IMG/VR virus record: IMGVR_UViG_3300038393_002510
Location: 1-62,811 of that record
From: a virus
Taxonomy: Duplodnaviria; Caudoviricetes
Length of the DNA stretch: 62,811 nt
Reading direction: 5' to 3' (one strand)
A program made the position numbers and the translations under genes. A model generated the notes under the pieces. It was not told the DNA's origin, did not search any database, and was given only the letters and a program-made list of their open reading frames with translations. The first letter of the stretch is position 1, and the number at the start of each line of letters is the position of its first letter. Below, one piece after another: positions 3,482 through 62,811 of the stretch.

Positions 3482-4206
3482 AGCGGCTCTCCGAAGGCAT
3501 CGTCTTCGGGGACGTCACCCTCGGAGCCTTCCTCCTCGGCGCCGGGCACGGGTGGCACGGCGGCGCCGAGGAGGAGGAAGCAGAGCGCGTCGCCCGCGTT
3601 CATCAGGGCGGTGCCGGCGTCAAAACCCTGGCGCTTGGCCGTGCGGGTGATGAGGTCGGTCAGGCGCTCCGCGTCGGCCAGCGGCACCTGAAAGCGCATC
3701 ATGGCGTGCGTCTTCGGGGCGGTGGCGACCGGGGTCTCGTGTTCCGTTGCGGTTTCGGACTCGGTCTCGTCTAAATCCAAGTCCTCCAGCGCTATAGTCG
3801 AAGACGAGAAGATCGACGTGAGCTCCTCGTCCGTGAAAGGCATGGTCTCCTGAAAGCCCTCGACGTCTCCCAGGCTCTTGAGCAGCAGCGCCAGCTCGCT
3901 GGCGTCGTCCTGCCCGTAGCGGGTGTTGTCGATCAGGCCGATCTTCTTGGCCTCGTCCTCGTCGATCGGGCCGAAGTTCAGCACCGGGACCAGGGGAAGA
4001 CCGAGATCGGTCGCGACCTTCCAGCGATGCTCGCCGCCCAGGATCTCCAGGCCGGTGTCGGTCTCGCGCACCAGGATCGGGCGCACGATGCCGCGCTGCC
4101 GGATGGAGGCGGTGAGCTTGGCCTCGTTGTCCGGCGCGACGTGGTTGGAGTTCCACGGGTTCGGCCGGAGCTCGGACGGCGCGATCTGGAGTGACTTGGG
4201 ATGCAT
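3478..4206 (-). CDS. ParB/Srx N-terminal domain protein
   Basis: LRPNPWNSN, PILVRE, ILGGEHRWKVA, DNTRYG. Confidence 0.9.
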   Translation of the reverse strand: MHPKSLQIAPSELRPNPWNSNHVAPDNEAKLTASIRQRGIVRPILVRETDTGLEILGGEHRWKVATDLGLPLVPVLNFGPIDEDEAKKIGLIDNTRYGQDDASELALLLKSLGDVEGFQETMPFTDEELTSIFSSSTIALEDLDLDETESETATEHETPVATAPKTHAMMRFQVPLADAERLTDLITRTAKRQGFDAGTALMNAGDALCFLLLGAAVPPVPGAEEEGSEGDVPEDDAFGEPL

Positions 4207-8021: not shown

Positions 8022-8138
8022 TCAGTAATCGCAATCTGTGGCGAAGAAGTGACGTATGGCCCGAAGGACACGACGCTTGAAAGTGTAGTGGAGCGCGAAG
8101 GTCTCGGCGTTCATCTCGGCGATATCGGAGAGGGTCAT
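8022..8138 (-). CDS. small hypothetical protein (38 aa)
   Basis: MTLSDIAEMNAETFALHYTFKRR...; shares the leader motif found upstream of the 8948 gene. Confidence 0.45.
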   Translation of the reverse strand: MTLSDIAEMNAETFALHYTFKRRVLRAIRHFFATDCDY

Positions 8139-8251
8139 CTGTCTAACTCGCTTCTGTGTTGCTGACGATTACTTGTCGCACGCCCCCGACAGGGGGTCAA
8201 GTCACCGGTGACTTATCAACAGCGTGCGAGAAAATCGCATTAGCGCGTCGG

Positions 8252-8316
8252 TGAGACGCTTCGCGCGTCTCAGAGCTAGATCTGCTCACTGAGACGCTTC
8301 GCGCGTCTCAGTGAGC
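8252..8316 (-). terminator. two tandem hairpins downstream of the GG/CC-free gene
   Basis: TGAGACGC-TTCGC-GCGTCTCA (8252-8272) and a 14-bp perfect stem GCTCACTGAGACGC/GCGTCTCAGTGAGC (8284-8316); both are GG/CC-free. Confidence 0.7.
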
Positions 8317-8327
8317 TTGCTAGACGC

Positions 8328-8948
8328 TTAGAGCGCGACGCTCAGAGCTTTAGCTAGACGCTTCGTCGTTGCAGCGCTCAGATTGAGCGAATATGCAACT
8401 TCATTGCGTTCATCGCGCGTTTCTTTGAGAACGTCGAACATTTGCAGCGCGTTAATGCTGCTAGAGCTTTGCGTGTCAGCAGTATTCGCTGCAACAGTCT
8501 TAGCATAGCGCACGATATGTTGAGCTTTTGCAGCGTCAGCGCGCAGATCAACACACAGCGACGCTTGTGCATCTTTGTGCGTCATCGTCATGTTAGCTTT
8601 CGTGAGCTTAAGAGCAGTCAAGAAAATGCAGCGCGTGTAATTGTTGAGCGTATCAGCAGCAGCAGCAGAGCGCGCAATGTTAGCGACTTTCTGAGCGCTA
8701 TAGACGTTGAAGCGCTTGTTGCGACGCTCTTGACGATTGATAAAGTTAGCGTCGACGTTTGCGCTGTGCATAACTTTAACGACAGCTTCGTGAGAGAAAT
8801 CAATCGCGAGATTGTCGAGAGTCTTTTGAATGTTCGTGTTCTCAGCGTTGCACTCAATCTCATAAGACTTGCGAGCAGCGATCGACGTCTGAAGAGCGAC
8901 GCTGTAGTTCGCGACAGCTTCGTTCTGAGCGTTGTTGAGCTTCGTCAT
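8328..8948 (-). CDS. GG/CC-free gene; 206-aa putative winged-helix protein lacking Gly, Pro and Trp; paralog of 10253-11194
   Basis: ATG at 8948 (MTKLNNAQ...). Aligns with 10253-11194 (NIQKTL/NIHKTL, VDANFINR/VDPSFINR, FNVYSAQKVA/YNVYAVDKVA, TQSSS/TQASS, TKRL). Confidence 0.85.
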   Translation of the reverse strand: MTKLNNAQNEAVANYSVALQTSIAARKSYEIECNAENTNIQKTLDNLAIDFSHEAVVKVMHSANVDANFINRQERRNKRFNVYSAQKVANIARSAAAADTLNNYTRCIFLTALKLTKANMTMTHKDAQASLCVDLRADAAKAQHIVRYAKTVAANTADTQSSSSINALQMFDVLKETRDERNEVAYSLNLSAATTKRLAKALSVAL

Positions 8949-9249
8949 GACTGTGTCTCTCTGTGTGTGTGTTGCTGACGATTGAGAGAATACAGAGTCG
9001 GCAGATCGGCTCAAGAGCACAAAGCGAGAACAGAGCGAAAAAGTCAGCGGGAGGTGATTATTTTTGATGGGACGCACTTTCTCGTGCGGAGTGCGGAAAT
9101 GCCACTCGACGGGCGAGCGGAACTCCGTGGAGCCAGGATGGATTGTGCGCAATCGAATTGGGCACAACTCGATTGGGGTCAATTCAATTGGGGTCGATCG
9201 AATCACGCCCGATGGGCTCGGGCTCGATCGAGTCGTGCCCGACGCTTCC

Positions 9250-9557: not shown

Positions 9558-9854
9558 TCAGAACTGCTCCTCGCGGAGCATCTCCTTCTGGAAGCGGGCA
9601 CGGGCGCGGAGGCGGTTGCGCTCGACGCGGGCGGTGCGGTGCGCGTAGCTCGCGGCCCGGGTCGCCTGGCCCATCGTGACGACGTTGCGCTCGGCGTCGA
9701 GGAGCTGGGAGAGGCTCAGGAGGTTCGAGCGGGCCTGGGCGGTGATCTCCCGGGCGTGGGCGCGCTGCATGTCGCGCGTCTCGGTCTGGAGGCTGTCGAG
9801 GTAGTCGGCGCACTCAGCGAAGCGACGGGCGACGGAAGCGATGAACTTGGTCAT
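9558..9854 (-). CDS. hypothetical helical protein
   Basis: Start MTKFIASVARRF at 9854. Confidence 0.7.
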   Translation of the reverse strand: MTKFIASVARRFAECADYLDSLQTETRDMQRAHAREITAQARSNLLSLSQLLDAERNVVTMGQATRAASYAHRTARVERNRLRARARFQKEMLREEQF

Positions 9855-10039
9855 GACTTGCTCTCGACTAGGTGAAGCGCTGCGCTTCGTTGTTGACGAG
9901 ACTGTTCTATCAAGTCGTGACGAGCTTGTGCGCGGAAGACCGAAGGATCTGCTTGGCGCTTTATGGGGCGGATACTTACGGGAGACGCTCTGTGGGAGCG
10001 GGGATCCCGGTATGGGCGGTCCGGGGCGCGGGGTCCGTC

Positions 10040-10252: not shown

Positions 10253-11194
10253 TTAGGCTGCCTTCTGGAAGAGCACCTCCTCGAGCCGCTTGGTGATCGG
10301 GCTGTCCGTCAGGGTGAAGGTCGGGTTCCGCGAGGAGCCCTCCCGCTTGACGATCCCGAGGGTCTCGAGGGCCTGCATCGTGGAGCTCGCCTGGGTCGGC
10401 GCGGTCGAGGCGCTGACCGTGTGCCGGAGCAGGTGCTTGCGGATCGCGAGGTCGATGTGGTGCTTGTCGGAGGCGCAGGCCTTCGCGACCTCACCGGTGA
10501 AGGGCAGCCCCGCTTTGCGCATCTGGAAGAGCGAGACCATGCAGGCCCGGTTGATCGCGTTGGAGATCACCCCGTCGGCGATCCCCTTCACCGCGTCCGC
10601 GACCTTGTCGACCGCGTAGACGTTGTAGCGGGAGCCGTCGTGGAGCGTGCGGTTGATGAAGGAGGGGTCGACCTGGGCCGCGAGCATCACGCGGGAGGTG
10701 TCCTTCCACATCAGCGCCTTGCGGACCTTGTTGAGGGTCTTGTGGATGTTGTGGTGGCTCCCGTGCTTCTCCGTCTCGAAGGCGGAGCGGGCGTCGATCG
10801 CCGCGGTGATCCGGGCGGTCATGCCCTGGACCGCGATCTCGTCGTGGGCGTTCATCAGCTCCCGGAAGCTGCGCTGGGCGGCGTCCTCCCGCTCGACCGT
10901 CTCCTCGAGGGTCTCGGGGCTCTCGGTGGCCTGGTCCTCGAGGACCGTCTCGGTGGCCTCGTGGGCGAGGACCTCTGCCTCGGCCTCGTCGGACCGGATG
11001 TCCTCGAGGGTGGCGAGGGCGGCGTCCAGGTCCGCATCGTCCGTGAGCGTCTCGGCCGCGAAGGTCTGGGTGAGAGAGGCGGCGCGGTCCTCCCGACGCA
11101 TGTGGTCCGTGTAGTCGGAGATGTGGGCGCCGTAATCGTTGGCGGTCAGGACGGACTGGGCGGCGATCTTCTTGGAAGAGGTCTTGCGGGCCAT
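10253..11194 (-). CDS. acidic N-terminus plus putative winged-helix C-terminus; normally coded paralog of 8328-8948
   Basis: AAGGAG RBS and start MARKTSSKK; C-terminal ~190 aa align to the GG/CC-free protein. Confidence 0.85.
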   Translation of the reverse strand: MARKTSSKKIAAQSVLTANDYGAHISDYTDHMRREDRAASLTQTFAAETLTDDADLDAALATLEDIRSDEAEAEVLAHEATETVLEDQATESPETLEETVEREDAAQRSFRELMNAHDEIAVQGMTARITAAIDARSAFETEKHGSHHNIHKTLNKVRKALMWKDTSRVMLAAQVDPSFINRTLHDGSRYNVYAVDKVADAVKGIADGVISNAINRACMVSLFQMRKAGLPFTGEVAKACASDKHHIDLAIRKHLLRHTVSASTAPTQASSTMQALETLGIVKREGSSRNPTFTLTDSPITKRLEEVLFQKAA

Positions 11195-11309
11195 CTGTCG
11201 AACTCCTTGTTTCGTGAAGCACTGCGCTTCGTTTCGACAAGAATGACTATGATGATCCCACAGACCGGATGCTAATGGCGCGTCGTGGGACTTACGACAC
11301 TGCCTCAAA

Positions 11310-15517: not shown

Positions 15518-15828
15518 CAGCCCGCGATCTCCTCGGCCGCGTTCATGCCGTCGTTCCAGGTCAGCTCGGCGAAGAGGCCGGCCTCGGCCTCGGCGAGCGT
15601 GGGCGAGTGGTCGGTGCCGCCCATGTGCCAGCCCCACTCGAAGCGGCCGTCGATCTCGATGATGGCGACGGCCCACGTCTCATTGTTGCGCGTGAAGGCG
15701 TAGAGGTGCGGCACGGCGCGCGGCGCAGCCTTGGAGCCGACCAGGCCCTCGACCGTCATGTGCGTCAGCGCCTCGAAGTCAGAGGCGTCGAAGTGCTTGG
15801 AGGTGGCGCGGAAGTCTTCGATGTTCAT
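15517..15828 (-). CDS. hypothetical protein, first gene of the operon
   Basis: Start MNIEDFR; leader carries the TGTGTTGCTGACGA motif. Confidence 0.7.
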   Translation of the reverse strand: MNIEDFRATSKHFDASDFEALTHMTVEGLVGSKAAPRAVPHLYAFTRNNETWAVAIIEIDGRFEWGWHMGGTDHSPTLAEAEAGLFAELTWNDGMNAAEEIAG

Positions 15829-16016
15829 GTCGCTCTCGCGTCGCTGTGTTGCTGACGAGATCGACACTATCGACCCCATCAGCGCTTGTGCGCGGCAGCT
15901 TGTGGCATCTGAAATTCACGCTCAGAGCGTCTGTGAGCGTCGGGATCGCGCTCGCGTATGCGAGACAAGTGCGAGCGCATGAACGCGCTCACCGCTCAAT
16001 TCTCGCGATCCCTGCG

Positions 16017-25561: not shown

Positions 25562-25819
25562 CCGCCCTCTCCTTCTCTCGCTCGCTGAGTAAGTCAGCGC
25601 TGACTGATTATAGCGAAGCGCGCTCGGGTTTGACGAAGCGCCCTGCCTGATCGTCAGAAGGTGGCTGGGATCGCGTGCGCGCGTCGCTGAGACGCTTCAG
25701 CTTGCGCGCGCTGTCTGCGTCGCTCGCGCGCGTGCCGAGTCTGTGTGAGCGTCTGAGCGCATTCTAGCAGCGCGGCACTCGATCGCGCGAGCGTGCGCTG
25801 TCTGCAAGCGTTCATGCGG

Positions 25820-26020
25820 GCCTGTGGGCAGGCGGGCAGACCGGCATGCAGATAATTTCGGCGTCGCGGCTTGGCGGTTACAGACAGGTAACGATGGCTG
25901 TGCTGAAACCGAGGCAGGCGAGTCGGCTCGTGGGATTGTGGGCAGGCCCGCAGATCCACAGGCCCGCAGATCCGCAGGCGGGCGAACGGACACGAAGGCG
26001 AGACGACAGGCAGGAGTGCA
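25820..26020 (+). repeat. TGTGGGCAGGC-type repeats upstream of parA (operator/centromere)
   Basis: Copies at 25823 and 25937 plus CCGCAG repeats. Confidence 0.6.
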
Positions 26021-45632: not shown

Positions 45633-45904
45633 GACACGCGCACCCCGAGCGCCTGGAGCTTGTGGGTGAGGTCGGCGATCTGCACCTCGAGGTGGCGCTC
45701 CAGAGCCTCGGCCATGTCGTTGAGGAAGCCGCCGCGCGGACCCTGGCTCATGACGATATCGCCGCCTTCGCCCTTGAACTTCAGCTCGGCGTATTTGAGG
45801 TTCCTGCGGTTCGCCCGCAGAGCTTCCAACTTGTCCCGCAAGGACTTGCGGTGCTTGGTGTGCTCCCGGATATCCTCGATCTGATTTTCTGTTAAGTCGA
45901 TCAC
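45629..45904 (-). CDS. hypothetical coiled-coil protein
   Basis: Coupled ORF. Confidence 0.65.
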   Translation of the reverse strand: MIDLTENQIEDIREHTKHRKSLRDKLEALRANRRNLKYAELKFKGEGGDIVMSQGPRGGFLNDMAEALERHLEVQIADLTHKLQALGVRVS

Positions 45905-47841
45905 GCGAAAATCTCCTCAATAGTGGACGCGCCGCGTCCGGTCTTGGTCACTTTCATCACCTGGGGAACCCAATCCTTCAGATCACTATGCGAGATGATG
46001 AAGACGGTCCCGCGCTCGCGGGCCTTCTCCTGAAGGATCATGGTGAGCCGCTCGATGCCGGCCGGATCGAGGGCGTTGTCGATCTCGTCGCCGACGAACA
46101 GCGGGATCGGCTTCGAGGCGCGCGAGGCCACGAGGTCCTGGAGCGCGAGCGCTGCCGCGATGCGGACCTTGCGCTGCTCGCCGCCGGAGATCGCCGCGAA
46201 CTTGGAGCCGCCGAGCGCGTGCTCGACCTCGATGGCGAACTTCTCCTTCAGCTCACCGGCCTTGTTGCGGGTGAGCGTCGACCAGGTGGCCCGGATGTTC
46301 CCGTCCGAGAGGGTGCCGAGATACTTCGCCGTCTGGGCGTTGAGGTAGGGCGTCACCTCGTCGAGCATCTCCGCGCGGGCGCCAGCCGGCGCGAACACCT
46401 TGCAGACCTCCTCGGCGATCTCGAACTCGGTCTGCGCCGCCTCCAGCGCGGCCTGGGCCGCCTTGAGCAGGTCCTCCTTCTCGACCACCGACGCCTCGTG
46501 GCGCGCCTTGACGGCCGCGTAGGGGTTCTCCTTGGCCTGGAGCGCCTTGATCCGGTCGGCCTCGCGCCGCGTCTCGGCGGCCCGGGCTTCGATCCGGTCG
46601 GACTCGCGATCGTATGCCGCCAGAGATGCGCGTAATTGAGCGCTGAGCGCGTTCGTCGCGCTCGCGTCAGTCATGCTCGCGCGATGCGCTTCCAACGCTG
46701 TGCGCGCGTCTGTGAGCTTCGCAGAAGCGCTCATGTGATCGCGCTTCACGTCGCGCAGCGTCAGCAGCTCAGCACGCAGATCGGCCGCGGCCTTCTCCTT
46801 GGCCGGCGCGATGTCGGCGGCGGTGTAGGGCTTGGCGCAGGTGCCGCACGGACAGCCGACCTGGTGATCCATGTCGTCGTGGGTCGCCTTGAGGCGGCGC
46901 GCCCGGGCGCTGATCGTCTCGATGGAGTGATGGTGCGCGTCCACGAGGCGCTGGGCCTGGGCGACCTCCTGCACCAGCCGGCGCTCCTCGGCCTGCTCGC
47001 CCGCGAGACCGTTGAGCCGCGCGAAGGCGTCGGCGAGCTGGGCGTCCAGGGCGTTCCGGTCGGTCTTGGCGAGTTCGGCACGGGCCGCCTTCACCTCGGC
47101 GACCATCGCGCGGACGTTCGCGGTGAGCTGGTCGACTTCGAGCTTCCGCCCGGTCTCCCACTCGCTCATGTCGAGCTTGGCGTCCTCGACCTGGTTGCGC
47201 GCGGCGTCGAGCCAGCTCTGGGCGTTGGCGACACCCTGGTTGGTCGCTGCCACGAGGGCCTTCGCCTCGTTGCACTGCTGGAGCGCGACCTTGTGGCCCT
47301 TCTCCAGGACCGTCGTGCCGGCGGCCTCCTCGACGATCACCTTGAGGTTCTTGTCGGTCATGCCGGGCAGGTCCGGCATCTGGTCCTGACCCGCGAGGAC
47401 GGCCGAGACGAACACCTCCCGGCTCGCGCCGAGGATCTCGTTCACGAGGGCCTGCGTGAGCTTGTCGGTGCCCTTGGTCAGGTCGTGGGTGTCGCCGGCG
47501 GCGTCGAGCAGCAGGACGCGCAGGGCGTTCTTGCCGGTCTTGTGCTTCCGATGCCGGGCGATGGTGTAGACCAGGTCGCCGTCCTGGATCCGCGCGGCGA
47601 CGCGCGTGCCCTTCTTCGCCACCCAGTTGATAACGTCGTCGCCGCTGATGCCGCGGCTCGTCTCGCCGAACAGGCACCAGAACAGCCCGTCGGCGAAGGA
47701 GCTCTTGCCGGCGCCGTTACTGTCGGCCGACGTGTCGCATTCGTTGACGCCCTGGACCAGCACGAGCCCGCGGTCAGACATGCCGACCTTGGCGCTCGCG
47801 ATGGTGAGGAAGTTCTCGATCTCGAGGTCGAGGATCTTCAC
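45901..47841 (-). CDS. SbcC/Rad50-like SMC ATPase (gp46-like)
   Basis: NGAGKSS, zinc hook CGTC, SGGEQRK, VGDE, ISH; GTG start at 47841. Confidence 0.92.
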   Translation of the reverse strand: MKILDLEIENFLTIASAKVGMSDRGLVLVQGVNECDTSADSNGAGKSSFADGLFWCLFGETSRGISGDDVINWVAKKGTRVAARIQDGDLVYTIARHRKHKTGKNALRVLLLDAAGDTHDLTKGTDKLTQALVNEILGASREVFVSAVLAGQDQMPDLPGMTDKNLKVIVEEAAGTTVLEKGHKVALQQCNEAKALVAATNQGVANAQSWLDAARNQVEDAKLDMSEWETGRKLEVDQLTANVRAMVAEVKAARAELAKTDRNALDAQLADAFARLNGLAGEQAEERRLVQEVAQAQRLVDAHHHSIETISARARRLKATHDDMDHQVGCPCGTCAKPYTAADIAPAKEKAAADLRAELLTLRDVKRDHMSASAKLTDARTALEAHRASMTDASATNALSAQLRASLAAYDRESDRIEARAAETRREADRIKALQAKENPYAAVKARHEASVVEKEDLLKAAQAALEAAQTEFEIAEEVCKVFAPAGARAEMLDEVTPYLNAQTAKYLGTLSDGNIRATWSTLTRNKAGELKEKFAIEVEHALGGSKFAAISGGEQRKVRIAAALALQDLVASRASKPIPLFVGDEIDNALDPAGIERLTMILQEKARERGTVFIISHSDLKDWVPQVMKVTKTGRGASTIEEIFA

Positions 47842-48008
47842 CGCTTGGTTTCCTTCTCGCAGGCGTCCTCCAGCTCCCACTCCGGGATCTGGTCGAGGAT
47901 GTCGCACATGGACGAGACCAGGCGCTCCTGGTCGGCGATCTGGTGCTGACGCTCAGCCGGGTCGGGCGACCAGCCCGGCCCGATGGTGCGGATGGTCTCG
48001 CCGATCAC
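47838..48008 (-). CDS. small hypothetical protein
   Basis: GTGA overlaps at both ends; 56 aa. Confidence 0.5.
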   Translation of the reverse strand: MIGETIRTIGPGWSPDPAERQHQIADQERLVSSMCDILDQIPEWELEDACEKETKR

Positions 48009-49508: not shown

Positions 49509-50407
49509 CAGGCCAGGTAGCCCGAGAGGTCGACGCCCTGCACCTTCGGGCCGACCTTGTTGTTGAGGTAGAGACCGCCCTTCCGGTAGCGCTCGAAGGT
49601 CGCGACCGTCTTATTCATCAGCTCCAGGGTGCGGCTGTTTCCGCTCTTGCCGCGCACCGTGCGGGTGATGAGGTCGTGGAGCGCCTGGACGCCGTCGCAG
49701 TGCGTGGACGTCTTCTGGCCGGCGTTCGCGTTATAGGCGCCCAGGAACTTGAGCGCGTCGGCCTTGTCCTTGCGCAGGATGATGACCGCGCCGGCGATTA
49801 CGCCGACCGGGAACAGCCGGGCGTTCGGGTCCAACTCGTCGAGGGCGACCAGCTCATCCCGGAAGGTCTCCAGGTTCCGGTAGATGTCGGCGACTTCCGG
49901 GCCGAGCAGGCGCGAGGCCATGCGCAGGGCGGCGGCGAACTTGTAGCGGCGCAGGTGGCTGCTCTTGAACTCCACCGCGGCCTGGCGAGCCGCGCCGGAC
50001 AGCTTGTCGGCCGTCGTCTCGACAGCGGAGGCGTTGTCGAAGTGGGTGTAGAGCTCCAGGAGGTCGGCGAAGGTGTCGACCATGTAGATGTGGGCGGCGA
50101 CGTTCTTGGGCGCCTTCAGCTCACCCTTGCCCCACAGGAACGCCCGGGTGTGGCCGTCGAGCTTATACTGCCGGCCCATGTAGCTCGCGACGTGGACGAC
50201 GGCGTGCGTCGGCGAGGGCTGCGCCAGGTGCTTCTTCTTCGCCATCTCGGCGTGCCGCGCGGTGTCGCGCTGCCGGGGATGATCCTCCAGCATCATGAAC
50301 TCGGCGATCGACATCGAGGTGTGCGTGCGCTTCACGCGGTCGACGAGGTCCGGATCCTTCGGGGCAGGGCGCGCGGCGACGGAGGCGGTGGCGATTGCGA
50401 CTTGCAT
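49508..50407 (-). CDS. hypothetical protein, possibly a divergent ParB/DGQHR-like domain
   Basis: HPRQR...LDGHTR...FDN. Confidence 0.6.
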   Translation of the reverse strand: MQVAIATASVAARPAPKDPDLVDRVKRTHTSMSIAEFMMLEDHPRQRDTARHAEMAKKKHLAQPSPTHAVVHVASYMGRQYKLDGHTRAFLWGKGELKAPKNVAAHIYMVDTFADLLELYTHFDNASAVETTADKLSGAARQAAVEFKSSHLRRYKFAAALRMASRLLGPEVADIYRNLETFRDELVALDELDPNARLFPVGVIAGAVIILRKDKADALKFLGAYNANAGQKTSTHCDGVQALHDLITRTVRGKSGNSRTLELMNKTVATFERYRKGGLYLNNKVGPKVQGVDLSGYLA

Positions 50408-50489
50408 GTCTCTCTCTGTGCGTGGTGTCAGTCAGTGCTGACTGACTCGTTATAGCGAGCGCGCGTCGGGTTTTGCGCGGGTTCGTGCG

Positions 50490-50912
50490 TCAGCGCTTCG
50501 GCATCTTGATGGCGGCGCGTCGATACGCGAACAGATGCCGCGGCAGGAAGCGCTGGAGCGCGCCGCCGCGGCCGGTGTAGTTCCGGTAGGGCGCCTTATC
50601 GCGGTCGAAGTAGTTCTCAAGGCGCGTGAGGTAGAGGTCGCCGGTCTCCTCCTCGCGCATGCCGACGAAGTCGATCTTGCGGGCGCGGAGCTTCAGCAGC
50701 GTGGCGTCGTCGATCGCCAAGGCCGCCTTCTTGAGGCGCACGGCGTCGGAGACGCAGGTCTCGCCGCCCCGGAACCACTCCTCCCGGAAGCGGTGCGCGA
50801 GGTAGACCTTCCGGCCATCGGGCACCTGGTAGATGTAGCCGTAGAGCCGGTTGCCGTTCTTGACGGCCTCAAGCCGCCTGGGATCGGGGGAAAGAGAGGA
50901 TCGTCGCTTCAC
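50490..50912 (-). CDS. hypothetical basic protein (start uncertain)
   Basis: Normal codon usage. Confidence 0.65.
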   Translation of the reverse strand: MKRRSSLSPDPRRLEAVKNGNRLYGYIYQVPDGRKVYLAHRFREEWFRGGETCVSDAVRLKKAALAIDDATLLKLRARKIDFVGMREEETGDLYLTRLENYFDRDKAPYRNYTGRGGALQRFLPRHLFAYRRAAIKMPKR

Positions 50913-55669: not shown

Positions 55670-56257
55670 TCATTCGGCCTCTGCCATCGACCGGGCTGCA
55701 CGGGCGCCCACGCGCTCGGCGGCCGACTTCTGATTGTCCTGGAGCTCGCGCTTCACCGACAGGGACAGCTCGCCCTTCCGCTCCTCGCGGGAGATGGCGC
55801 CGGCCTGCACCAGCATGTCGCGCCGGTGCTTGAAGGCCTCGAGGGTCGTGTTGGCGACCTTCTCGACCTGCTTGGCCTCGTTGAGGGCGCGCTTGTAGGC
55901 GACCACCTGCGGGTGCCGGGCGATCTTCCGCTCGACGATGCCTTCCGTGATCTTCTCGTTGAGGATCGCCATCGCCTCGCGGATCTCGCGATCGACGCGG
56001 GCCTCGGTGTTCTCGATGAGGATCTTGATGTTGTCGACCTGGCGCGAGGCCTTGGCCGCCAGCACGCCGAAGTGGGCGAACAGCGACGCCTGCTCGGCCA
56101 TCGCGGTCGAGAGGTCGTTCAGCGAGTAGGAGAGCTTGGTCTTGAGGTCCTCCTCCTTGAGGTAGTCGACCACGCGGACCTGGCGGACCTGCACCGGCTT
56201 CGGAGCGGGCAGGGCGGGCGCGGGCGGCGCCTCCTGGGTCTGGGCTTCGTCGCTCAT
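55670..56257 (-). CDS. UvsY-like helical recombination mediator
   Basis: All-helical; EQASLFAHFG...EAFKHRRDML; sits next to the SSB gene. Confidence 0.6.
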   Translation of the reverse strand: MSDEAQTQEAPPAPALPAPKPVQVRQVRVVDYLKEEDLKTKLSYSLNDLSTAMAEQASLFAHFGVLAAKASRQVDNIKILIENTEARVDREIREAMAILNEKITEGIVERKIARHPQVVAYKRALNEAKQVEKVANTTLEAFKHRRDMLVQAGAISREERKGELSLSVKRELQDNQKSAAERVGARAARSMAEAE

Positions 56258-56262
56258 GGCGC

Positions 56263-56541
56263 TCAGACCCGCGGCGGCCATGACCAGGTGCCCGGCTGAT
56301 CCGGGCCACCCTCACGCACGCTCATCTCCGGCACGAATGCCCGTCCGGGCGCGAAGACGTGGAGCGAGAGCAGATCGGAGCCGTCGCTGCCCTCGAACAC
56401 GCCCGAGACCAGGGCCGCGAACGGCTGCGGGATCTTCGCGGCCTCGCTGGGCAGCGGGTGGTAGTGGACGATGCGACCGATGCCGGGGCGCACCTTCAGG
56501 GGCGGCGCGAGGCGGCCCTCGATAGAGGTGGGTGGGTTCAC
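56263..56541 (-). CDS. hypothetical phage protein
   Basis: PGIGRIVHY...AALV...LHVF...GTWSWPPRV; GAGG RBS. Confidence 0.75.
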   Translation of the reverse strand: MNPPTSIEGRLAPPLKVRPGIGRIVHYHPLPSEAAKIPQPFAALVSGVFEGSDGSDLLSLHVFAPGRAFVPEMSVREGGPDQPGTWSWPPRV

Positions 56542-56633
56542 TCGTGCCTCACGTAAGTAAGTGCTGACTGATCTCTTATAGCGAGCGCATGTCGGGTTTT
56601 GTGAGGGACCGGCCGGGAATTTCGCATTCCCGG

Positions 56634-56642
56634 TTATCCACA
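56634..56642 (+). promoter_or_regulatory. perfect DnaA box
   Basis: TTATCCACA. Confidence 0.5.
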
Positions 56643-56709
56643 TGCCACGCTGGACGGCTGAGCTTGACAACGGCGCGTGTTTACAATGCGGGTTGTAAGG
56701 CTATCTTAC

Positions 56710-57020
56710 GAGGTGGAGACCCGCGGTGGCCCCCGCGGATCTCCTTGGTTGGTAGCCTGGCAGCTACGTGTTACGCGAGCCCGAGCGTGATGGTCACAGA
56801 CCACTCACCGCTCGGGTTTCTCGTAACGGTGATCCTCACGAGGGGGATCATCAGCACATTGCTCACCTCCTTCCCGTCTGCCTACTCACGCGACGGCGAT
56901 CGGCTAGGTCGCCGTAAGCCCCACGAGCCATGGGGCCGTCGTGACGGGAAGGTTGCCTCCAACGCGCTCAAGGTAGCACAAGCCCGAGCGCTGTCACCGA
57001 CAGGCCCGGGCTTGTCCCCC
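56710..57020 (+). ncRNA. candidate highly structured non-coding RNA (strand tentative)
   Basis: At least 7 stem-loops tile the interval; possible promoter TTTACA-N16-TATCTT at 56680-56707. Confidence 0.5.
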
Positions 57021-57085
57021 ACATCCACAGCTATGTGCCCTGGCGCCCGGGTTGTCCCCGATATGCACCACGACGCCGGTTGACG

Positions 57086-57433
57086 TCAGGCCGGGAGTTT
57101 CGCCCGCGGCGCCGCCTCGGCCATGGCCCAGATCTCGCGGTCCAGATGGCCGAACACCACGCGCCGGGGACGAGCACCGGCAGGCAAACGCAAGAACCCG
57201 ACGTGCCGGATCGTCACGAAGTTGAAGCCCTTCCTCCGAAACCGACGCAGGATGTCGGCGAGCTGCTCGCAGACCTGACGGCGGCGCCAATTCGATCCGA
57301 ACACCGTGTCGAAATCCTCGAAGAGGATCTTCTCCCCGACCTGGACGGCGTAGAGCATCTCCAGCAGGAGGCGACGGTCGAGACCACCCATCGTGTCAGC
57401 CTCGACGATCCCCACCGGCCGGTCATCACTCAT
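57086..57433 (-). CDS. OmpR/Trans_reg_C-like winged-helix protein
   Basis: ILRRFRRKG..FVTIRHVGF. Confidence 0.6.
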   Translation of the reverse strand: MSDDRPVGIVEADTMGGLDRRLLLEMLYAVQVGEKILFEDFDTVFGSNWRRRQVCEQLADILRRFRRKGFNFVTIRHVGFLRLPAGARPRRVVFGHLDREIWAMAEAAPRAKLPA

Positions 57434-57450
57434 CGCCACACTCCCGACAC

Positions 57451-60400
57451 TCACTCCGTCAGCGACGCCGCGACCTCGAACACCTCGTTGAGCTTCGCCT
57501 GCTTGGACGCCTCGTGGAAGATCTCGCCTGGGGCGAAGCCGATCACGAGGTTGGCGTCGAGCTCCTTGTGGTAGACCACCTCGCCCGCGACCTCGGACGC
57601 CTTGCCCTTGAAGTCGGGGATGAACTGGCGAACCGTGGTCGAGCCGAGCAGCACGATCACCGGCGGCTTGAGGATCTCGATCTCGCGCTGGAGATATGGT
57701 GCGTAGGTCGCGATCTCGGACGCCGAGACCTGCTTGCCGGCCTTGGGCCGCTTGATGAGCGCGGTCCAGTAGGCGTCGGCCCGCGAGAGGTCGTTGGCGT
57801 CGAGCGCCTCCTGGACCCACTCGCTGACGCAGTAGCTGCCGCGGTTGTCGTAGCTCATGCGCCCGGACGCATCCTCACCCTTCGAGGGCGCGTCGAGGAT
57901 CACCATGAAGCGCATGTTCTTGCCGGTGGTCATCTTCACCGGCATGCCGTCCTCGGCGCAGCCGTCCGAGTAGTCGGCGAACACCTCCAGGATCTTGATC
58001 CGGCTGTCCCGGTCCTTGTGCATCTCCCGGTTGATCGGAACGTGCGCCGTGATGAGGCCCGGGATCAGCTCGCGCTGGTCCTTGATCCGGTCGGGGTGCC
58101 GGCGATGGAGCTGACCCGGCTCGATGTCGGCGAAGGCACCGACCAGGTCGAGGAGCCCGACGTGCTTGACGTTGCAGCGGCGCCGCTCGACCCGCTCGGA
58201 CAGGTTGGCCTTGGACGTGAACGGCCCCTGCCCGTCGTTCCGCGCCTTCAGGATCGCCTCCGTGGTCAGCGCCGAGATACCCTTGATCCGGTTGAAGGGC
58301 ATGCAGAGGCGCGTGTCGGTCACGATCTCGAACTGGCCCGTGGAGTGGTTGATGTCGGGCAGATCAACCTCGATGCCGAGCCGCTCGGCGTCCTTCATCA
58401 GGCCCGGCAGCTTGTCCTGGGGCATCAGCGACAGGGCGGCTGCGAAGAACTCCACCGGGTAATGGGTCTTGAGATACATCGCCTGATAAGAAATCAAGGT
58501 GTATTCTACGGAGTGACTCTTGTTGAACCCGTATCCAGCGAAGCCTTCGATCTTGTCGAACAACTGTCCGGCCCATTCCGGCGTGCATTCGACTGTCTTG
58601 ATGCAGCCGTTTACGAACTTGCCGCGCTCCTTTGCCATTTCCTCGGGGAGCTTCTTGCCCATGATCTTGCGGAGCTTGTCGGCGTCCGCGCCCGAGTAGC
58701 CGGCGATAACCTGGGAGGCCTTCATGACCTGCTCCTGGTAGACGAACACGCCGTAGGTGGGCGCCAGGACCGGCTCCAGGAGCGGGTGGTCGTAGTCCAC
58801 GCTCTCGTGGCCCTGCTTCCGCTTCCAGTAGCTGTCCATCATGCCCGACTCCATCGGGCCTGGCCGGTAGAGCGCGGTCGCGGCCGTGATGTCGTCGAAG
58901 GTAATCGTGCCGTCGCGCCCGAGCTCCTTAAGAAGTCGGCGCATACCGCCGCCCTCGAACTGAAATATTCCGGTCGAGATCGCGCGGGCGAAGTTGTCGA
59001 GCACCTTCGGCTCATCGAGCGGGATCCGCAGCAGGTCGACCTTCTTGCCGCGCCGCTTGCGGATGTAGTCGAGGGTGAGCGCGATCAGGTCGAGGGTGTT
59101 GAGGCCCAGGATGTCCATCTTCACGAGGCCCTGGTCCTCGACGATGCGCTTGTCCCAGCACACCACCGGCAGATCCGGCACCGGCTCCTCGCCTTCCTTG
59201 GGCTTGGCCGGGGCCTTGCGCCGCTCGATCACCGCGCGCTCGACCAGGTCGACGCCGCCCACGACGACGCCGGCGGCGTGCTGCGAGAGGTTGCGGAGCG
59301 TGCCTTCCAGCTTCTCGGCCGTGTCCCAGATCTCCGGGTTCGCGCTCTTGAAGGCGGCGATCTCGGAGACCTCCTCGGCCGCGACCGTCAGCTTGACCGG
59401 CTGGCCGTGCTTCTTCGGCACGAACTTCGAGCAGCGGTAGAGCTCCTCGTTGAGCCCGAACACGCGCGACACGTCGCGGATCGCCGATGAGGCGCCCAGA
59501 CGCCCGTAGTTCGAGACGCCGGCCACGCGCGCCGTCCCATACTTGCGGATGAGATACTGGAACACCTCGTGCCGGCGCTCGGACATGAAGTCGAGGTCGG
59601 CGTCGGGAAGGTCGATACGCTCGGGGTTGATGAAGCGCTCGAACAGAAGACCGAAGCGGATCGGGTCGCAGTCGGTGATCCCCATCAGGTAAGCGACGAG
59701 TGAGCCACCCACGGAGCCGCGGCCCGGGCCGACCAGGATGCCCTGGCTCTTGGCCCACACGACCACGTCCTGCACGAGGAGGAAGTAGCCCGAGAAGTTG
59801 AGGTTCTTGAGCACGGACAGCTCGTAGCGCAGCCGCGGCTCGTAGACCGCCTTCAGCTCGTCCATGTCGGGCCGGTGCCCGAACACCTCCGCCGTGAAGC
59901 GCTCCTTCCAGCCGACCTTGCAGGCGGCCACCACAGCCGCGAACTCGTTGGGCGCCATGACCGGCAGCGAGGGCGCCGACTTCACCCAGGCGAACGTGAC
60001 CATGTCGACGAGGCGCGCGGTGTTCTTGAGGCCTTCCGAGAAGCGGCCCTTGGTCGGCACGCCCCGGTATTCCTCGAGCCGCTTGGCCGCGGCCTTCACG
60101 TCGCGCACCAGCTCGGGCAGGGTCTTCGGGTGCAGGTCGCGCACCGCGTTGAACCACGCCCAGGGCTCGGTGAGCTTCACGTTGCGGGTGACGGCGTTCA
60201 TGATGTCGGCCGCGTCCGCGGAGCCTTCCTCGTAGAGGGCAGGGGCCGCGACCAGCGTCGGCAGGCCGAGCTCCTCGGCGAGCGCCAGCGCCTTGACGTT
60301 CTGCGTGTCCCAGTAGGGCGTGTCGACCGGCACCAGCGTGCAGAACGTATTAGACGCGCTCAGAGCGTCGGAAATCTTGCGTAGTATCTGAGACGCTGAC

Positions 60401-60855
60401 TTGTGCGAAACGACGCTGTGCGCGTCGCTTGTCGCAATCGCGACGTCTGCCGCAGTGACGTTCGCAAGCTCTGCATAGAGATCATCGAACGCGAGCTTGG
60501 GGACGTTGTAGAAACGGTCCTCGGAGTTGGCGAGCGAGAGCAGCCGGTAGAGCGCCATGAGCCCGGTCTGCGACAGCACATACCAGGTCACGAAGAACTC
60601 CGGCGGCGCCTTCTTGCTCTCCTTGGTCTTGCGCCAGGTGACGTCGTCCACGAGCCGTAAGCGGCAGCCGATGACCGGCTTGATGCCGGCCTTCTGCGCC
60701 TTCTGGGTCAGCTCGATCAACGCGGTGCACGACATCGTGTCGGTGATGCCGACCGCCTTCGCGCCGGCCCCGGCCGCGCGGTCGACGAGCTTGTCGATGG
60801 CGAGGATCGACTCGCCGATGCTGAAGTTCGACCGTGCGGCCAGGATCGCGTGCAT
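57451..60855 (-). CDS. dnaE: DNA polymerase III alpha with C-terminal uracil-DNA-glycosylase-like domain
   Basis: PHP N-terminus, GPGRGSVGGS, PDADLD, KMDILGL, GIFQFE, GYGFNKSH; C-terminal ILDAP..GED..G, ALIKR, EIEILKPPVIVLLG. Confidence 0.95.
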   Translation of the reverse strand: MHAILAARSNFSIGESILAIDKLVDRAAGAGAKAVGITDTMSCTALIELTQKAQKAGIKPVIGCRLRLVDDVTWRKTKESKKAPPEFFVTWYVLSQTGLMALYRLLSLANSEDRFYNVPKLAFDDLYAELANVTAADVAIATSDAHSVVSHKSASQILRKISDALSASNTFCTLVPVDTPYWDTQNVKALALAEELGLPTLVAAPALYEEGSADAADIMNAVTRNVKLTEPWAWFNAVRDLHPKTLPELVRDVKAAAKRLEEYRGVPTKGRFSEGLKNTARLVDMVTFAWVKSAPSLPVMAPNEFAAVVAACKVGWKERFTAEVFGHRPDMDELKAVYEPRLRYELSVLKNLNFSGYFLLVQDVVVWAKSQGILVGPGRGSVGGSLVAYLMGITDCDPIRFGLLFERFINPERIDLPDADLDFMSERRHEVFQYLIRKYGTARVAGVSNYGRLGASSAIRDVSRVFGLNEELYRCSKFVPKKHGQPVKLTVAAEEVSEIAAFKSANPEIWDTAEKLEGTLRNLSQHAAGVVVGGVDLVERAVIERRKAPAKPKEGEEPVPDLPVVCWDKRIVEDQGLVKMDILGLNTLDLIALTLDYIRKRRGKKVDLLRIPLDEPKVLDNFARAISTGIFQFEGGGMRRLLKELGRDGTITFDDITAATALYRPGPMESGMMDSYWKRKQGHESVDYDHPLLEPVLAPTYGVFVYQEQVMKASQVIAGYSGADADKLRKIMGKKLPEEMAKERGKFVNGCIKTVECTPEWAGQLFDKIEGFAGYGFNKSHSVEYTLISYQAMYLKTHYPVEFFAAALSLMPQDKLPGLMKDAERLGIEVDLPDINHSTGQFEIVTDTRLCMPFNRIKGISALTTEAILKARNDGQGPFTSKANLSERVERRRCNVKHVGLLDLVGAFADIEPGQLHRRHPDRIKDQRELIPGLITAHVPINREMHKDRDSRIKILEVFADYSDGCAEDGMPVKMTTGKNMRFMVILDAPSKGEDASGRMSYDNRGSYCVSEWVQEALDANDLSRADAYWTALIKRPKAGKQVSASEIATYAPYLQREIEILKPPVIVLLGSTTVRQFIPDFKGKASEVAGEVVYHKELDANLVIGFAPGEIFHEASKQAKLNEVFEVAASLTE

Positions 60856-60863
60856 GTTGAGGA

Positions 60864-61169
60864 TCAGCCTTCCAGGGCGCGCCAGTTGATGATGCGGACG
60901 TTCTTGAGCTGCTTCTGCTCGGTGATGACCTGCTCGACCTTCAGCAGGGCATCGAGGGTGCGCAGGTCGGCGAGACCGTCGACCCACATGCGGTCATGGC
61001 GATCGAAGCCGTCGGCGTCCTCGTGGACGAAGGCCACGAACGTGCGCCGGGGCGGGGTTTCGATGGGCTGGCCCGGCTGCACCGGCTCCAGGGTCTCGGC
61101 TTCGGCGCGCGCCTTGGCGGCGTCGAGGCGCTGCTGACGCCGGTTCGTCTTCGGGGTCTCGTCGGTCAT
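60864..61169 (-). CDS. hypothetical protein
   Basis: GAGG RBS; start MTDETPK. Confidence 0.65.
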   Translation of the reverse strand: MTDETPKTNRRQQRLDAAKARAEAETLEPVQPGQPIETPPRRTFVAFVHEDADGFDRHDRMWVDGLADLRTLDALLKVEQVITEQKQLKNVRIINWRALEG

Positions 61170-61699
61170 AGGGTCCTCAGTGTGAGGCGGCCGTTGCTCT
61201 CGGCTGCGGCTCCAAGCGCGGTGAGCGCCTGGAACGCCTGGGTCGCGTGGGCGGCCGCCGTGCCCTCGCTCCATCCCAGCTTCCTCACGAACGCCGTCTT
61301 GAGCGTCGTCCGGTCGATGCCCGCCCGCATGTGCAGGAGCAGGTGACAGGTGACGCGCAGGAACGCCGGGCTCGTGGTGAAAGGGTTCTCGCCGCGCGCG
61401 AGCGCGGCCGTGACGGAGATGCCGGCGCGCTCGATGCGGGCCAGCAGCTCCTCGACCTTCTTCGGCAGGCCCTCGGTGAGCACGCCCGTGGCGTGAACCT
61501 CTGCCGGGGGCTTGGGCTGACGCACGACCTTGGCTCGGGGCTTGGCGACGATGCCGAGCTCCGCGCGACGCCGGGCGAGCTGCTCGGCGCCGATACGCGC
61601 GCACTCCTCGGAGAACGGGCACGAGATGCACTCGGCCGCGTCCTCTCGGTGGGAGAGAGCGTAGCCGAAACAGCCGGGGCGCAAGGCAGAAGTCAGCAC
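61166..61699 (-). CDS. Cys-motif N-terminus plus wHTH-like C-terminus protein
   Basis: PGCFG...CISC....C and WSEGTA..H...LTL. Confidence 0.75.
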   Translation of the reverse strand: MLTSALRPGCFGYALSHREDAAECISCPFSEECARIGAEQLARRRAELGIVAKPRAKVVRQPKPPAEVHATGVLTEGLPKKVEELLARIERAGISVTAALARGENPFTTSPAFLRVTCHLLLHMRAGIDRTTLKTAFVRKLGWSEGTAAAHATQAFQALTALGAAAESNGRLTLRTL

Positions 61700-61711
61700 T
61701 TACTTATTTCC

Positions 61712-62344
61712 TTAGCTGATGGCGAACCGCGCGAGGTGCTTCACCTCGCGGTAGATCTTGTTCCGCTCCACGCGGTCGGCGCCCATGAGGTCGAGGACCA
61801 GGGAGCCGGTGATGTGGCCCGGGACGCCCGCGCGGATGCCCCGCGAATTGGCGAACTCGGCCCGGGCCTGGATCGCCGTCATCTCCTCGTAGAGGGCCAG
61901 CGGCGGGTTCGCGAGCAGCTCCACGAACTGACGCGCCTGGGGTGAGAGCAGACTGAGGTTGCGCTCGAACTCCTGGGTGTCGCCGAGCAGCTCGTCCTGG
62001 AGCGGGCCGTGGTCCGGGATCGCCTCGTGCAGGTCCGAGCCCTCGTCGCCGCGCTCCTCGTCGAGATCGAGGGCCGCGGCGTGGCCGATCTGCCGGTCGA
62101 TCCAGTCGTTGATGTGGTTGCGCATGCCGAGCTGCAGGTAGGCGCCGAAGGGCACGCCCTTGCTGGCGTCGAACCGCTCCCGGGCGATCACCCAGGCGAG
62201 CGACAGCTCCGAGACCACGTCCGAGAGCATCACCGAGCGGGCGCCTGCCGCGTGCGCCCGCTTGAGGTAGCGGAACGCTGAGCGCTCCACGACGTGTCGC
62301 CAGTCCTTCCACTGGATCGGGTGGGTGTCGCGCATGGCGCTCAC
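61712..62344 (-). CDS. phage sigma70-family (sigma-like) factor
   Basis: Region 2-like DVVSEL..AW..ARERFDASKGVPFGAYL...MRNHI, then LDLDE and LSPQARQ. Confidence 0.7.
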   Translation of the reverse strand: MSAMRDTHPIQWKDWRHVVERSAFRYLKRAHAAGARSVMLSDVVSELSLAWVIARERFDASKGVPFGAYLQLGMRNHINDWIDRQIGHAAALDLDEERGDEGSDLHEAIPDHGPLQDELLGDTQEFERNLSLLSPQARQFVELLANPPLALYEEMTAIQARAEFANSRGIRAGVPGHITGSLVLDLMGADRVERNKIYREVKHLARFAIS

Positions 62345-62811
62345 CCGAAGTAGCGCTGGGCGAGCTGCGAGGCGGCCTCGCGGTCGACCCGGCTCATGCG
62401 GTTCATGAAGCCCTGCTTGAGCCCGGCCGTGTAGTCGGCGCCCTTCATGACGCCGAGCCGCCCGGCGGTGATGAGCTCGCGCGGCGAGATCGTCATGCCC
62501 ATCCGGCCGCCCTTGAAGGCCTCGCGGATGTCGTTGGCGAACTGGACGAGCTTCTTGGCGTCGTCCTTCTTGAGACCCGCCTGGCTGGCGATGACCGCGG
62601 TCTCGAGCTCCGGCTCCATGTAGGGGACCTCCTCGACGATGTGCATGCGCGAGTAGTTCGCGGCGTTCTGGATCTGGGTGCCCTGGTAGAGGCCCGTCTC
62701 GTCGCCGCCGCCGTTGGTGTTGCCGGTCGCCACGAAGCGGAAGTTCTTGTGCGGGCGGATCACCCGCATGTCCGGCGGCGCGTCCTTGATGAACAGCGGC
62801 TTGCCCTCGAG
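62341..62811 (-). CDS. CobS/MoxR-type AAA+ ATPase (5' end outside window)
   Basis: LEGKPL...HKNFRFVATGNT.G.GD.TGLYQGT, ISPRELI. Confidence 0.88.
   Translation of the reverse strand, partial: LEGKPLFIKDAPPDMRVIRPHKNFRFVATGNTNGGGDETGLYQGTQIQNAANYSRMHIVEEVPYMEPELETAVIASQAGLKKDDAKKLVQFANDIREAFKGGRMGMTISPRELITAGRLGVMKGADYTAGLKQGFMNRMSRVDREAASQLAQRYFG

Follow-up and report, generated by a model that had tools for sequence, protein, structure and literature searches.

A dnaE segment cleared of GG and CC belongs to a lineage-conserved set of dinucleotide-exclusion islands in a phage-plasmid-like siphovirus

Messages without ACA escape the MazF RNase, and RegB of phage T4 cuts at GGAG. Origins of replication can lie within replication genes, as with lambda ori in gene O and oriV inside repC of repABC plasmids, and the first-step-transfer region of phage T5 is said to be free of the EcoRI sites that are present in the rest of its genome. 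Here we describe a segment of about 170 bp in the dnaE gene of the virus record IMGVR_UViG_3300038393_002510, the entire sequence of which (62,811 nucleotides, 62.8 kb; class, virus) is the window analysed. The segment is ordinary dnaE coding sequence in which purifying selection keeps both strands free of the GG·CC step, and it belongs to a set of exclusion islands, conserved in the lineage, that also includes a segment of sbcC, a cassette around a small gene (P0002) and some leaders, in the early and replication half of the genome. Avoidance of restriction sites and of protospacer-adjacent motifs (PAMs) is known in phages as a genome-wide and partial effect (PMC4246573; PMC12174588), and the likeness lies in a short word that is under-represented relative to composition, with selection acting on synonymous and non-synonymous sites. 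In the known cases, however, the avoided word is the site of an identified host system, whereas the islands described here exclude a bare dinucleotide, are depleted from about tenfold to totally, and take the form of ~170-bp patches and 0.75-2 kb cassettes at homologous gene positions.

The gene and the island are as follows.
57451-60987, minus strand: dnaE open reading frame (ORF), DNA polymerase III alpha with a C-terminal UDG-like domain (PHROGs, Pfam, relatives).
60334-60499, minus strand: dnaE island that excludes GG/CC (codons 119-173, with the ATG at 60855 as codon 1), peptide KLAFDDLYAELANVTAADVAIATSDAHSVVSHKSASQILRKISDALSASNTFCT (counts, resampling, relatives).

The product matches PHROG 405 at E = 9e-294 and carries the Pfam domains PHP, DNA_pol3_alpha, finger and HHH, in that order. 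Translation probably starts from the ATG at 60855, the position at which the proteins of the relatives begin (MHAILAAR); the longest ORF begins 44 codons upstream of it, and the C terminus bears a uracil-DNA-glycosylase-like domain (Pfam UDG, residues 980-1085). The Pfam PHP match covers residues 8-134 and the polymerase core starts at 312, so that the island, at residues 119-173, overlaps the end of the PHP match and extends into the stretch ahead of the core; its placement in the PHP domain by the initial annotation, a reading of the letters alone, is roughly right.

On the plus strand, GG or CC is found at 60333, 60370, 60450 and 60499, with the intervals between them empty. The 166 bp from 60334 to 60499 hold two GG/CC against a window-wide mean of 29.9 per 166 bp (standard deviation 7.1), and five or fewer are reached in only three regions of the window (8194-9069, 46595-46797 and 60318-60516). 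The G+C content goes down from ~0.70 to 0.57-0.60 and no lower, and GG and CC alone are missing, the odds of CG (1.82) and GC (1.59) being raised and the remaining dinucleotides ordinary. Both strands are equally cleared, with 18 sense-strand GG and 11 CC across 11 distinct sequences of the island. In 30 order-3 Markov simulations no island arose at all, against four in the real sequence of the window by the same criterion, and other dinucleotide classes give at most one island each. The island encodes the longest run without Gly, Pro or Trp in DnaE (56 residues, 56 codons; the runner-up has 25), and G+C at third codon positions (GC3) is 0.68 inside it versus 0.94 outside, with the rare codons ATA, CTA, TCT, AAT and ACT. 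The single GG (60370) and single CC (60450), the rare codons and the absence of Gly, Pro and Trp reported in the initial annotation are thereby borne out by the counts, the codon usage and the peptide run.

Peptide composition is insufficient to account for the depletion, because synonymous resampling (same peptide, codon usage of the gene) gives 21.9±3.1 GG/CC, with a minimum of 10 in 20,000 trials, versus 4 seen, and because codon-order shuffles expect 10.1±2.4 GG/CC at codon junctions, where there is 1. The clearing is brought about in three ways, namely the absence of Gly, Pro and Trp, the use of the G+C-richest synonymous codons that are free of GG/CC, and the absence of G|G or C|C junctions. 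The codons chosen (GCG, ACG, AGC, GTC) are the G+C-richest that the rule permits and not C-to-T products; for example, Ala is encoded by GCG 8 times, GCA twice, GCT once and GCC never, and each rare codon sidesteps a GG/CC that the preferred codon would make. This choice argues for selection over C-to-T hypermutation. The island peptide aligns over its full length, residue for residue, with the island-free DnaE of Rhizobium phages and is therefore not an insertion; the Gly and Pro residues of those phages correspond here to Ala, Thr-Ser, Lys or Thr, swaps for which transitions do not account. Apart from the GG/CC rule, the primary sequence of the island is free to drift.

The source phage is a phage-plasmid-like siphovirus. 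Its replication and nucleotide-metabolism module, as assigned with PHROGs, comprises polynucleotide kinase, a ParB-like protein, helicase, RIIA, dUTPase, thymidylate synthase, ribonucleotide reductase, SbcCD, a UvsX/RecA-like recombinase, exonuclease, SSB and DnaE. The nearest named DnaE proteins are those of the Rhizobium siphophages B1VFA and RHEph10 (~59% identity), followed by those of Pseudomonas phage nickie and Stenotrophomonas phage ANB28 (~42%), and the DnaE of the phage-plasmid SSU5 is 36% identical. Four IMG/VR relatives share 81-90% identity across DnaE residues 1-352. One of these four, G002, is a complete record of 117.5 kb and also encodes RepC and ParA, and the host names given in the sources are Methylorubrum for one G002 protein and Methylobacterium and Faunimonas for other homologues.

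Across the four close relatives, aligned as DNA, the island is GG/CC-poor throughout, even in the strongly diverged L008. For a broader view, 77 DnaE N termini from IMG/VR were set beside that of the window (78 rows), and GG/CC in the aligned island segment of each row was compared with the rest of that sequence. Strong depletion was found in 15 rows (1-6 GG/CC versus 17-30 expected), partial depletion in 13 and no depletion in 50, the last including every row of the Rhizobium-phage clade (37/37). In a quick maximum-likelihood tree (IQ-TREE), the 15 strong rows form one cluster, for which a single change of state suffices and whose sisters L070, L072 and L074 are island-free; support for this cluster is weak, with Shimodaira-Hasegawa-like approximate likelihood-ratio values of 59 for all 15 strong rows and 87 for 14 of them. 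The borders are shared, the poorest 150-nt window ending at alignment columns 190-205 in all 15 strong rows and starting at columns 138-144 in 14 of them (116 in L073). The nickie clade has an overlapping island of its own, ~25 codons further downstream, with minima of 2-8 in 11 rows, located at columns 170-231 in 8 of the 11. Conservation in relatives was a point on which the initial annotation had staked its proposal, and the depletion is indeed kept in strong-clade peptides down to ~50% identity in the aligned N-terminal DnaE stretch. The same annotation had pointed to conservation of synonymous sites among orthologues, and this did not materialize, the identical-codon fraction being 0.32-0.88 in the island versus 0.48-0.80 in the flanks (10 pairs), with no consistent excess. 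What is kept across the relatives is a compositional rule and not a sequence.

The other features of the window that bear on the island are listed here.
8250-9000, minus strand: 750 bp without any GG/CC, spanning the P0002 leader, gene and 3' hairpins (GG/CC counts).
8253-8309, minus strand: two copies of the hairpin GAGACGC-TTCGC-GCGTCTC directly 3' of the P0002 gene.
8331-8948, minus strand: P0002 gene (206 aa; no Gly, Pro or Trp), with a predicted C-terminal winged helix (model, library searches).
9751-9934, minus strand: stretch whose sense strand alone lacks GG (plus strand: 0 CC, 11 GG), over the leader and first codons of the gene starting at 9854.
15810-15992, unstranded: GG/CC-poor stretch over the leader of the gene starting at 15828, holding CTCAGAGCGTC at 15921.
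25661-25825, unstranded: intergenic GG/CC-poor island upstream of an SLT-domain gene, 8 seen versus 31.7 expected.
45901-47907, minus strand: SbcC/Rad50-like gene holding the sister island (PHROGs).
46620-46783, minus strand: sister island in sbcC (GG/CC counts, homologous place in relatives).

The sister island begins ~15 codons past the zinc-hook CxxC of SbcC, has 1 GG/CC at its codon junctions versus 12.6±2.6 expected, and lies at the same aligned place in all four phages compared (the window phage, G001, G002 and nickie). A survey of nine records for 150-bp windows with an observed/expected ratio of 0.2 or less gave four islands in this window, six in G002, three in G001, one in B1VFA, four in RHEph10, nine in nickie, one in ANB28, three in JGB6 and one, marginal, in SSU5. 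Genome-wide GG/CC odds are 0.76-0.88 in all nine, the depletion being limited to the islands, and mapping of two complete genomes, G002 and nickie, put no island in the virion-structure module. The islands are of similar length (166 bp in dnaE, 164 bp in sbcC and 150-260 bp for others in relatives), and the suggestion that they form a real, non-random class is upheld. In addition, some stretches lack GG on the sense strand and have normal CC, both in the window (9751-9934 and 50357-50537) and in G002 (97575-98975) and nickie (82266-82385, 102938-103057 and 105455-105624); they cover leaders and small early genes near the cassettes.

The largest island is the P0002 cassette, whose exclusion zone begins ~50 nt ahead of the start codon and stops at the base of the outer 3' hairpin, with no GG/CC at the codon junctions of the gene versus 29.4±4.1 expected. 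Equivalent zones were found in G002 (three genes, 2.1 kb, 25 seen versus 224 expected), B1VFA (874 bp, 3 versus 75.7), RHEph10 (1063 bp, 6 versus 105) and nickie (1227 bp, 3 versus 100), the last ending 19 nt past a terminator-like hairpin. P0002 and its 50 homologues (P0003-P0052) are proteins of ~200 aa; in an alignment of 46 of the 51 (five near-duplicates of a 68%-identity group were dropped), Gly and Pro each make up 0.1% of residues and Trp is absent, and 33 of the 46 contain no Gly, Pro or Trp at all, the family being nearly without these residues because its genes exclude GG/CC. The P0002 model (predicted local distance difference test score 90.6) places a winged helix at the C terminus, with MarR, PadR and histone H1 folds as its best structure matches at Z 7.0-7.9, which may reflect a common fold only; Foldseek returned nothing against the PDB at E <= 0.001. 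P0002 and its neighbours have no match in PHROGs, PADLOC, NCBIfam or PDB sequences, only a sub-threshold DUF6387 hit in Pfam (E = 0.0077) and only unnamed clusters in the ESM Atlas, and the family is unnamed in every library searched. A P0002 paralogue of 351 aa at 10253-11308 is of normal composition.

Some smaller observations were made around the cassette. A 38-codon ORF of normal composition at 8025-8138 (minus strand; MTLSDIAEMNAETF...) shares its first residues with a 231-aa gene of G002 that is GG/CC-free (L014 189-884, minus strand), so that the exclusion zone spans three genes in G002 but a single one in the window. A conserved leader word, TCGTCAGCAACACA on the minus (coding) strand and TGCTGACGA on the plus strand, occurs at 8160-8168, 8973-8981 and 15850-15858, ~20-30 nt upstream of the three minus-strand starts 8138, 8948 and 15828, all of which have leaders without a GG-type Shine-Dalgarno sequence. 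These leaders are rich in CA/GAGAG, as is the nickie leader (L038, about 3990-4067).

The initial annotation had read the islands as a defined dispersed element with a shared sub-motif. The words on which this was based do recur in other islands, GAGACGC at 8253, 8291, 25689 and 60390 and CTCAGAGC at 8269, 8341, 15921 and 60359, at the places the annotation gave, and TGAGACGCT in the cassette is an arm of the 3' hairpins, from which its recurrence stems. The 9-11-mers common to the dnaE island and the other islands of the window are about twice as many as in dinucleotide-preserving shuffles (P = 0.014-0.04; 0.07 for 8-mers), and sharing between window and nickie islands does not exceed shuffles (P = 0.11-0.29). 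A search for k-mers enriched over first- and second-order Markov expectation yielded GACGCT in the window (GACGCT/AGCGTC, 18 versus 5.3 expected) and AGCGCT, CTACAG and ACTAGT, parts of local hairpins, in nickie, and no enriched word common to the two phages. The predicted common motif is thus reduced to a roughly twofold sharing within the window, and words such as CTCAGAGCGTC tend to be the usual spelling of G+C-rich sequence without GG/CC. Of the proposed element, the non-random class, the similar length and the conservation stand, whereas insertion and a firm shared motif do not; the class is defined by a compositional rule, the absence of the GG·CC step, and not by a motif. A dispersed repeat or mobile element of the repetitive extragenic palindrome or miniature inverted-repeat transposable element type was rejected, as the sharing exceeds shuffles only about twofold within the window and not at all against nickie, and the island is no insertion relative to orthologues.

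Near-zero tolerance, specificity for a single dinucleotide and strand symmetry look like site avoidance. We tentatively favour, at a probability of about one in three (0.35), the reading that the islands are the footprint of selection keeping a putative factor that reads the GG/CC dinucleotide off them, in dnaE over ~170 bp. The substrate would most simply be duplex DNA, since both strands are cleared equally and one specificity would cover GG and CC, and the factor could cut, modify or coat; the patch would then be left whole, unmodified or open to access as the factor acts on the remainder of the GG/CC-rich genome. In DnaE the patch lies in a variable PHP insert, and in SbcC it lies in the coiled coil that follows the zinc hook, places where the proteins would tolerate a segment free of Gly, Pro and Trp. 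The case of T5 is alike in that local site avoidance is there explained by a time window exposing only part of the genome; it differs in concerning one terminal region and a 6-bp site, whereas the islands here lie inside dnaE and sbcC, far from known ends. In a bolder and rather doubtful version, a novel GG·CC-reading factor, phage-encoded or widespread in hosts, would hit nearly all DNA or RNA and so divide the genome by one dinucleotide, the islands being invisible to it. A complete, presumably immediate-early cassette would then be exempt, its protein family having given up Gly, Pro and Trp, and the ~170-bp patches could act as shielded entry sites or primers in replication or recombination, or persist as RNA or DNA fragments.

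Several observations weigh against site avoidance by a duplex-reading factor. The exclusion is not absolute, as the junction GG at plus-strand position 60450 (GCG|GCA) is retained in 10 of 11 distinct clade members, and, with every NGGN context depleted at least fourfold, YGGT is the best tolerated, being ~2.5-fold less depleted than most others. The stretches in which the sense strand alone lacks GG indicate a reader acting on RNA for at least part of the phenomenon. No gene for a GG/CC-reading nuclease, a methyltransferase or base modification was recognised among 108 G002 ORFs with Pfam or in the window with PHROGs, and none of 141 G002 ORFs matches nickie while missing from B1VFA and RHEph10, the Rhizobium phages without in-gene (dnaE, sbcC) islands (tblastn, E <= 1e-4). 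The reading also gives no reason why a spared patch of 166 bp inside a 3.4-kb gene would be of help.

Avoidance at the level of RNA is the most probable of the rivals, and we regard it as unlikely. Here, phage RNAs without GG, and in this case also without CC, would escape an RNA-reading factor such as an endoribonuclease, an RNA-modifying toxin, a GGA-binding regulator or pairing with the anti-Shine-Dalgarno sequence, and the spared part of dnaE would persist as an RNA of ~170 nt or pair with one. The sense-strand-only stretches over leaders and small early genes beside the cassettes fit this view, as do the 750-bp zone, which approximates one transcription unit (the nickie zone likewise ending past a terminator-like hairpin), the leaders without GG-type Shine-Dalgarno sequences, and the RNA-repair enzymes encoded, polynucleotide kinase in the window and RtcB ligase in G002. 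The parallel with MazF and RegB would be that a transcript without the nuclease word survives. On the other hand, CC is excluded from the dnaE island as strictly as GG, the remaining dnaE mRNA is GG-rich so that the message around the island is unprotected, no RNase of that kind was found here, no conserved promoter, terminator or structure was found for a separate RNA, and the antisense-strand TAGTAT is not kept in relatives. Nor does this view account for the exclusion of CC or say why 166 nt within a GG-rich message should count.

It is less probable still that the islands are dispersed cis elements serving as binding platforms for the GG-free P0002 or its paralogue, for instance by blocking or marking dnaE and sbcC while the phage is a plasmid, or by initiating replication. 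The confidently modelled winged helix of P0002, the fact that its own gene is the largest island, the twofold k-mer sharing within the window (P = 0.014-0.07) and the excess of GACGCT/AGCGTC would be in agreement with such a role, but a Z below 8 may mean a common fold only, the dnaE island shows no extra synonymous conservation and nickie islands share no motif with those of the window. B1VFA and RHEph10, for their part, keep a GG/CC-free P0002-type gene yet have no dnaE or sbcC island, and a platform does not need zero GG/CC over 0.75-2 kb or a protein without Gly, Pro and Trp. Origins embedded in replication genes are alike in being patches of odd composition, 100-200 bp long, in a replication gene, and relatives of this phage encode RepC and ParA; they are, however, A+T-rich with iterons, whereas the dnaE island has 58% G+C and lacks both repeats and a conserved motif, and swapping GG/CC for CG/GC does not ease DNA melting.

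Evasion of CRISPR systems through PAM-free zones that yield no protospacers, with CC as the PAM of type I-F and NGG as that of some Cas9 enzymes, is improbable. GG/CC is the best-known dinucleotide read on duplex DNA, and genome-wide I-F PAM depletion is reported in Pseudomonas aeruginosa phages (PMC12174588), as is motif depletion in phages of CRISPR-bearing hosts (PMC4246573). Here the depletion is local, the rest of the genome having the usual GG/CC odds of 0.82, and cuts elsewhere would kill the phage anyway; tolerance of YGGT is no property of a PAM, and Cas7f of type I-F (PF09615), the one marker looked for, occurred in just 4 of the 301 genomes sampled from the taxonomic order to which one host genome belongs. 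A search of PMC12174588 gave no hit for the terms 'island', 'early' or 'local'.

A mutational or mosaic origin, by CC-specific deamination, biased gene conversion or import from a GG/CC-poor donor, could be entertained from the drop in G+C and from a peptide rich in Ser and Ala, but it is very improbable given the use of the G+C-richest allowed codons in place of C-to-T products, Gly and Pro replacements that need transversions, borders that stay fixed (columns about 138-205 in 15/15 clade members) while the sequence diverges, and homology along the entire island. Finally, a by-product of protein make-up (a linker free of Gly, Pro and Trp), a rare-codon pause or chance is hardly credible: the homologous segment of B1VFA dnaE is also the GG/CC-poorest of its gene (13 versus a mean of 20.7, z = -2.4), which suggests a region naturally low in Gly and Pro, and GC3 is lowered, but resampling never approaches the count seen, codon junctions avoid GG/CC as well, and every rare codon avoids one that the preferred codon would make.

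We class the islands as a new form of motif avoidance. A literature search, which covered few subscription journals and no supplements, found no precedent for a dinucleotide being excluded locally and almost completely, with effects that extend to the protein sequence and are kept at homologous gene positions. Vertebrate ultra-conserved non-coding elements come near in one respect, since they combine a GpC excess with a depletion of the same dinucleotide pair that is likewise unexplained (PMC9690913); these elements are ultra-conserved and only mildly depleted, whereas the islands here drift and are depleted almost totally. If site avoidance is correct, a cis-feature defined by absence would be strong enough to set which amino acids may occur in a protein family and in parts of two essential proteins of replication and repair, and would be conserved in phages of alpha- and gammaproteobacteria. 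It would also imply an unrecognised GG/CC-reading activity, which might be a defence, a nuclease or RNase of host takeover, a modification of bases or a coat on the DNA, and for whose targets and escapees the islands would provide a simple genomic signature. Should the reader be of a new kind, the islands would represent a new cis-signal defined by the absence of a dinucleotide and imply a nuclease or modifier with two-base specificity, which would be of interest to enzyme hunters. For annotation, rare-codon, low-G+C patches within genes of G+C-rich phages are not necessarily foreign DNA.

Other types of feature were also sought at the island. RNA folding on either strand shows no excess over dinucleotide shuffles (z = -0.50 and -0.22), Rfam has no match in the window, and a scan for sigma-70 promoters and intrinsic terminators, with phage-specific promoter types outside its scope, found no sites in 59900-60950 or 46200-47200. 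Selection for unstructured RNA was rejected, folding being more stable than in mononucleotide shuffles (z = -2.1 for dnaE and -3.2 for sbcC), as was a sequence-specific embedded element (operator, origin or small RNA), with synonymous-site conservation no higher than in the flanks. An overlapping gene was likewise rejected: in each alternative frame at least one of the 11 distinct sequences has a stop, and the best, an antisense frame, is open in 3. In the window itself, all five alternative frames have stops inside 60334-60499, and the island bounds long spurious ORFs of the kind typical of G+C-rich sequence, one of which ends inside it (59875-60384, plus strand) and another of which starts inside it (60403-60660, plus strand). 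Cumulative GC skew tracks gene orientation and does not mark the islands. Four sequencing runs compared with the window are all represented by contigs, at 85-99% likeness, which carry no information on transcripts, ends or strands at the island. Contigs from the freshwater metatranscriptome run X19, which cannot show RNA origin, cover (over 56000-62811) a dnaE relative differing at ~11% of positions.

Further GG/CC-poor islands of 150-215 bp occur in nickie (L010 25198-25411, 35529-35696 and 47916-48067; L038 740-918 and 10040-10192), in short genes and unannotated intergenic DNA, several of them edged by Shine-Dalgarno-like GGGA(A/T) words, and from 54 to 98 kb of this genome islands recur roughly every 10-12 kb. 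In G002 islands, AAGTCAG is enriched (7 versus 0.5 expected). Operator-like perfect palindromes, GTCAGCGCTGAC and GTCACCGGTGAC, flanked by AA...TTAT, adjoin GG/CC-poor regions at 25586-25597 and 8200-8211 in the window and at L014 948-959.

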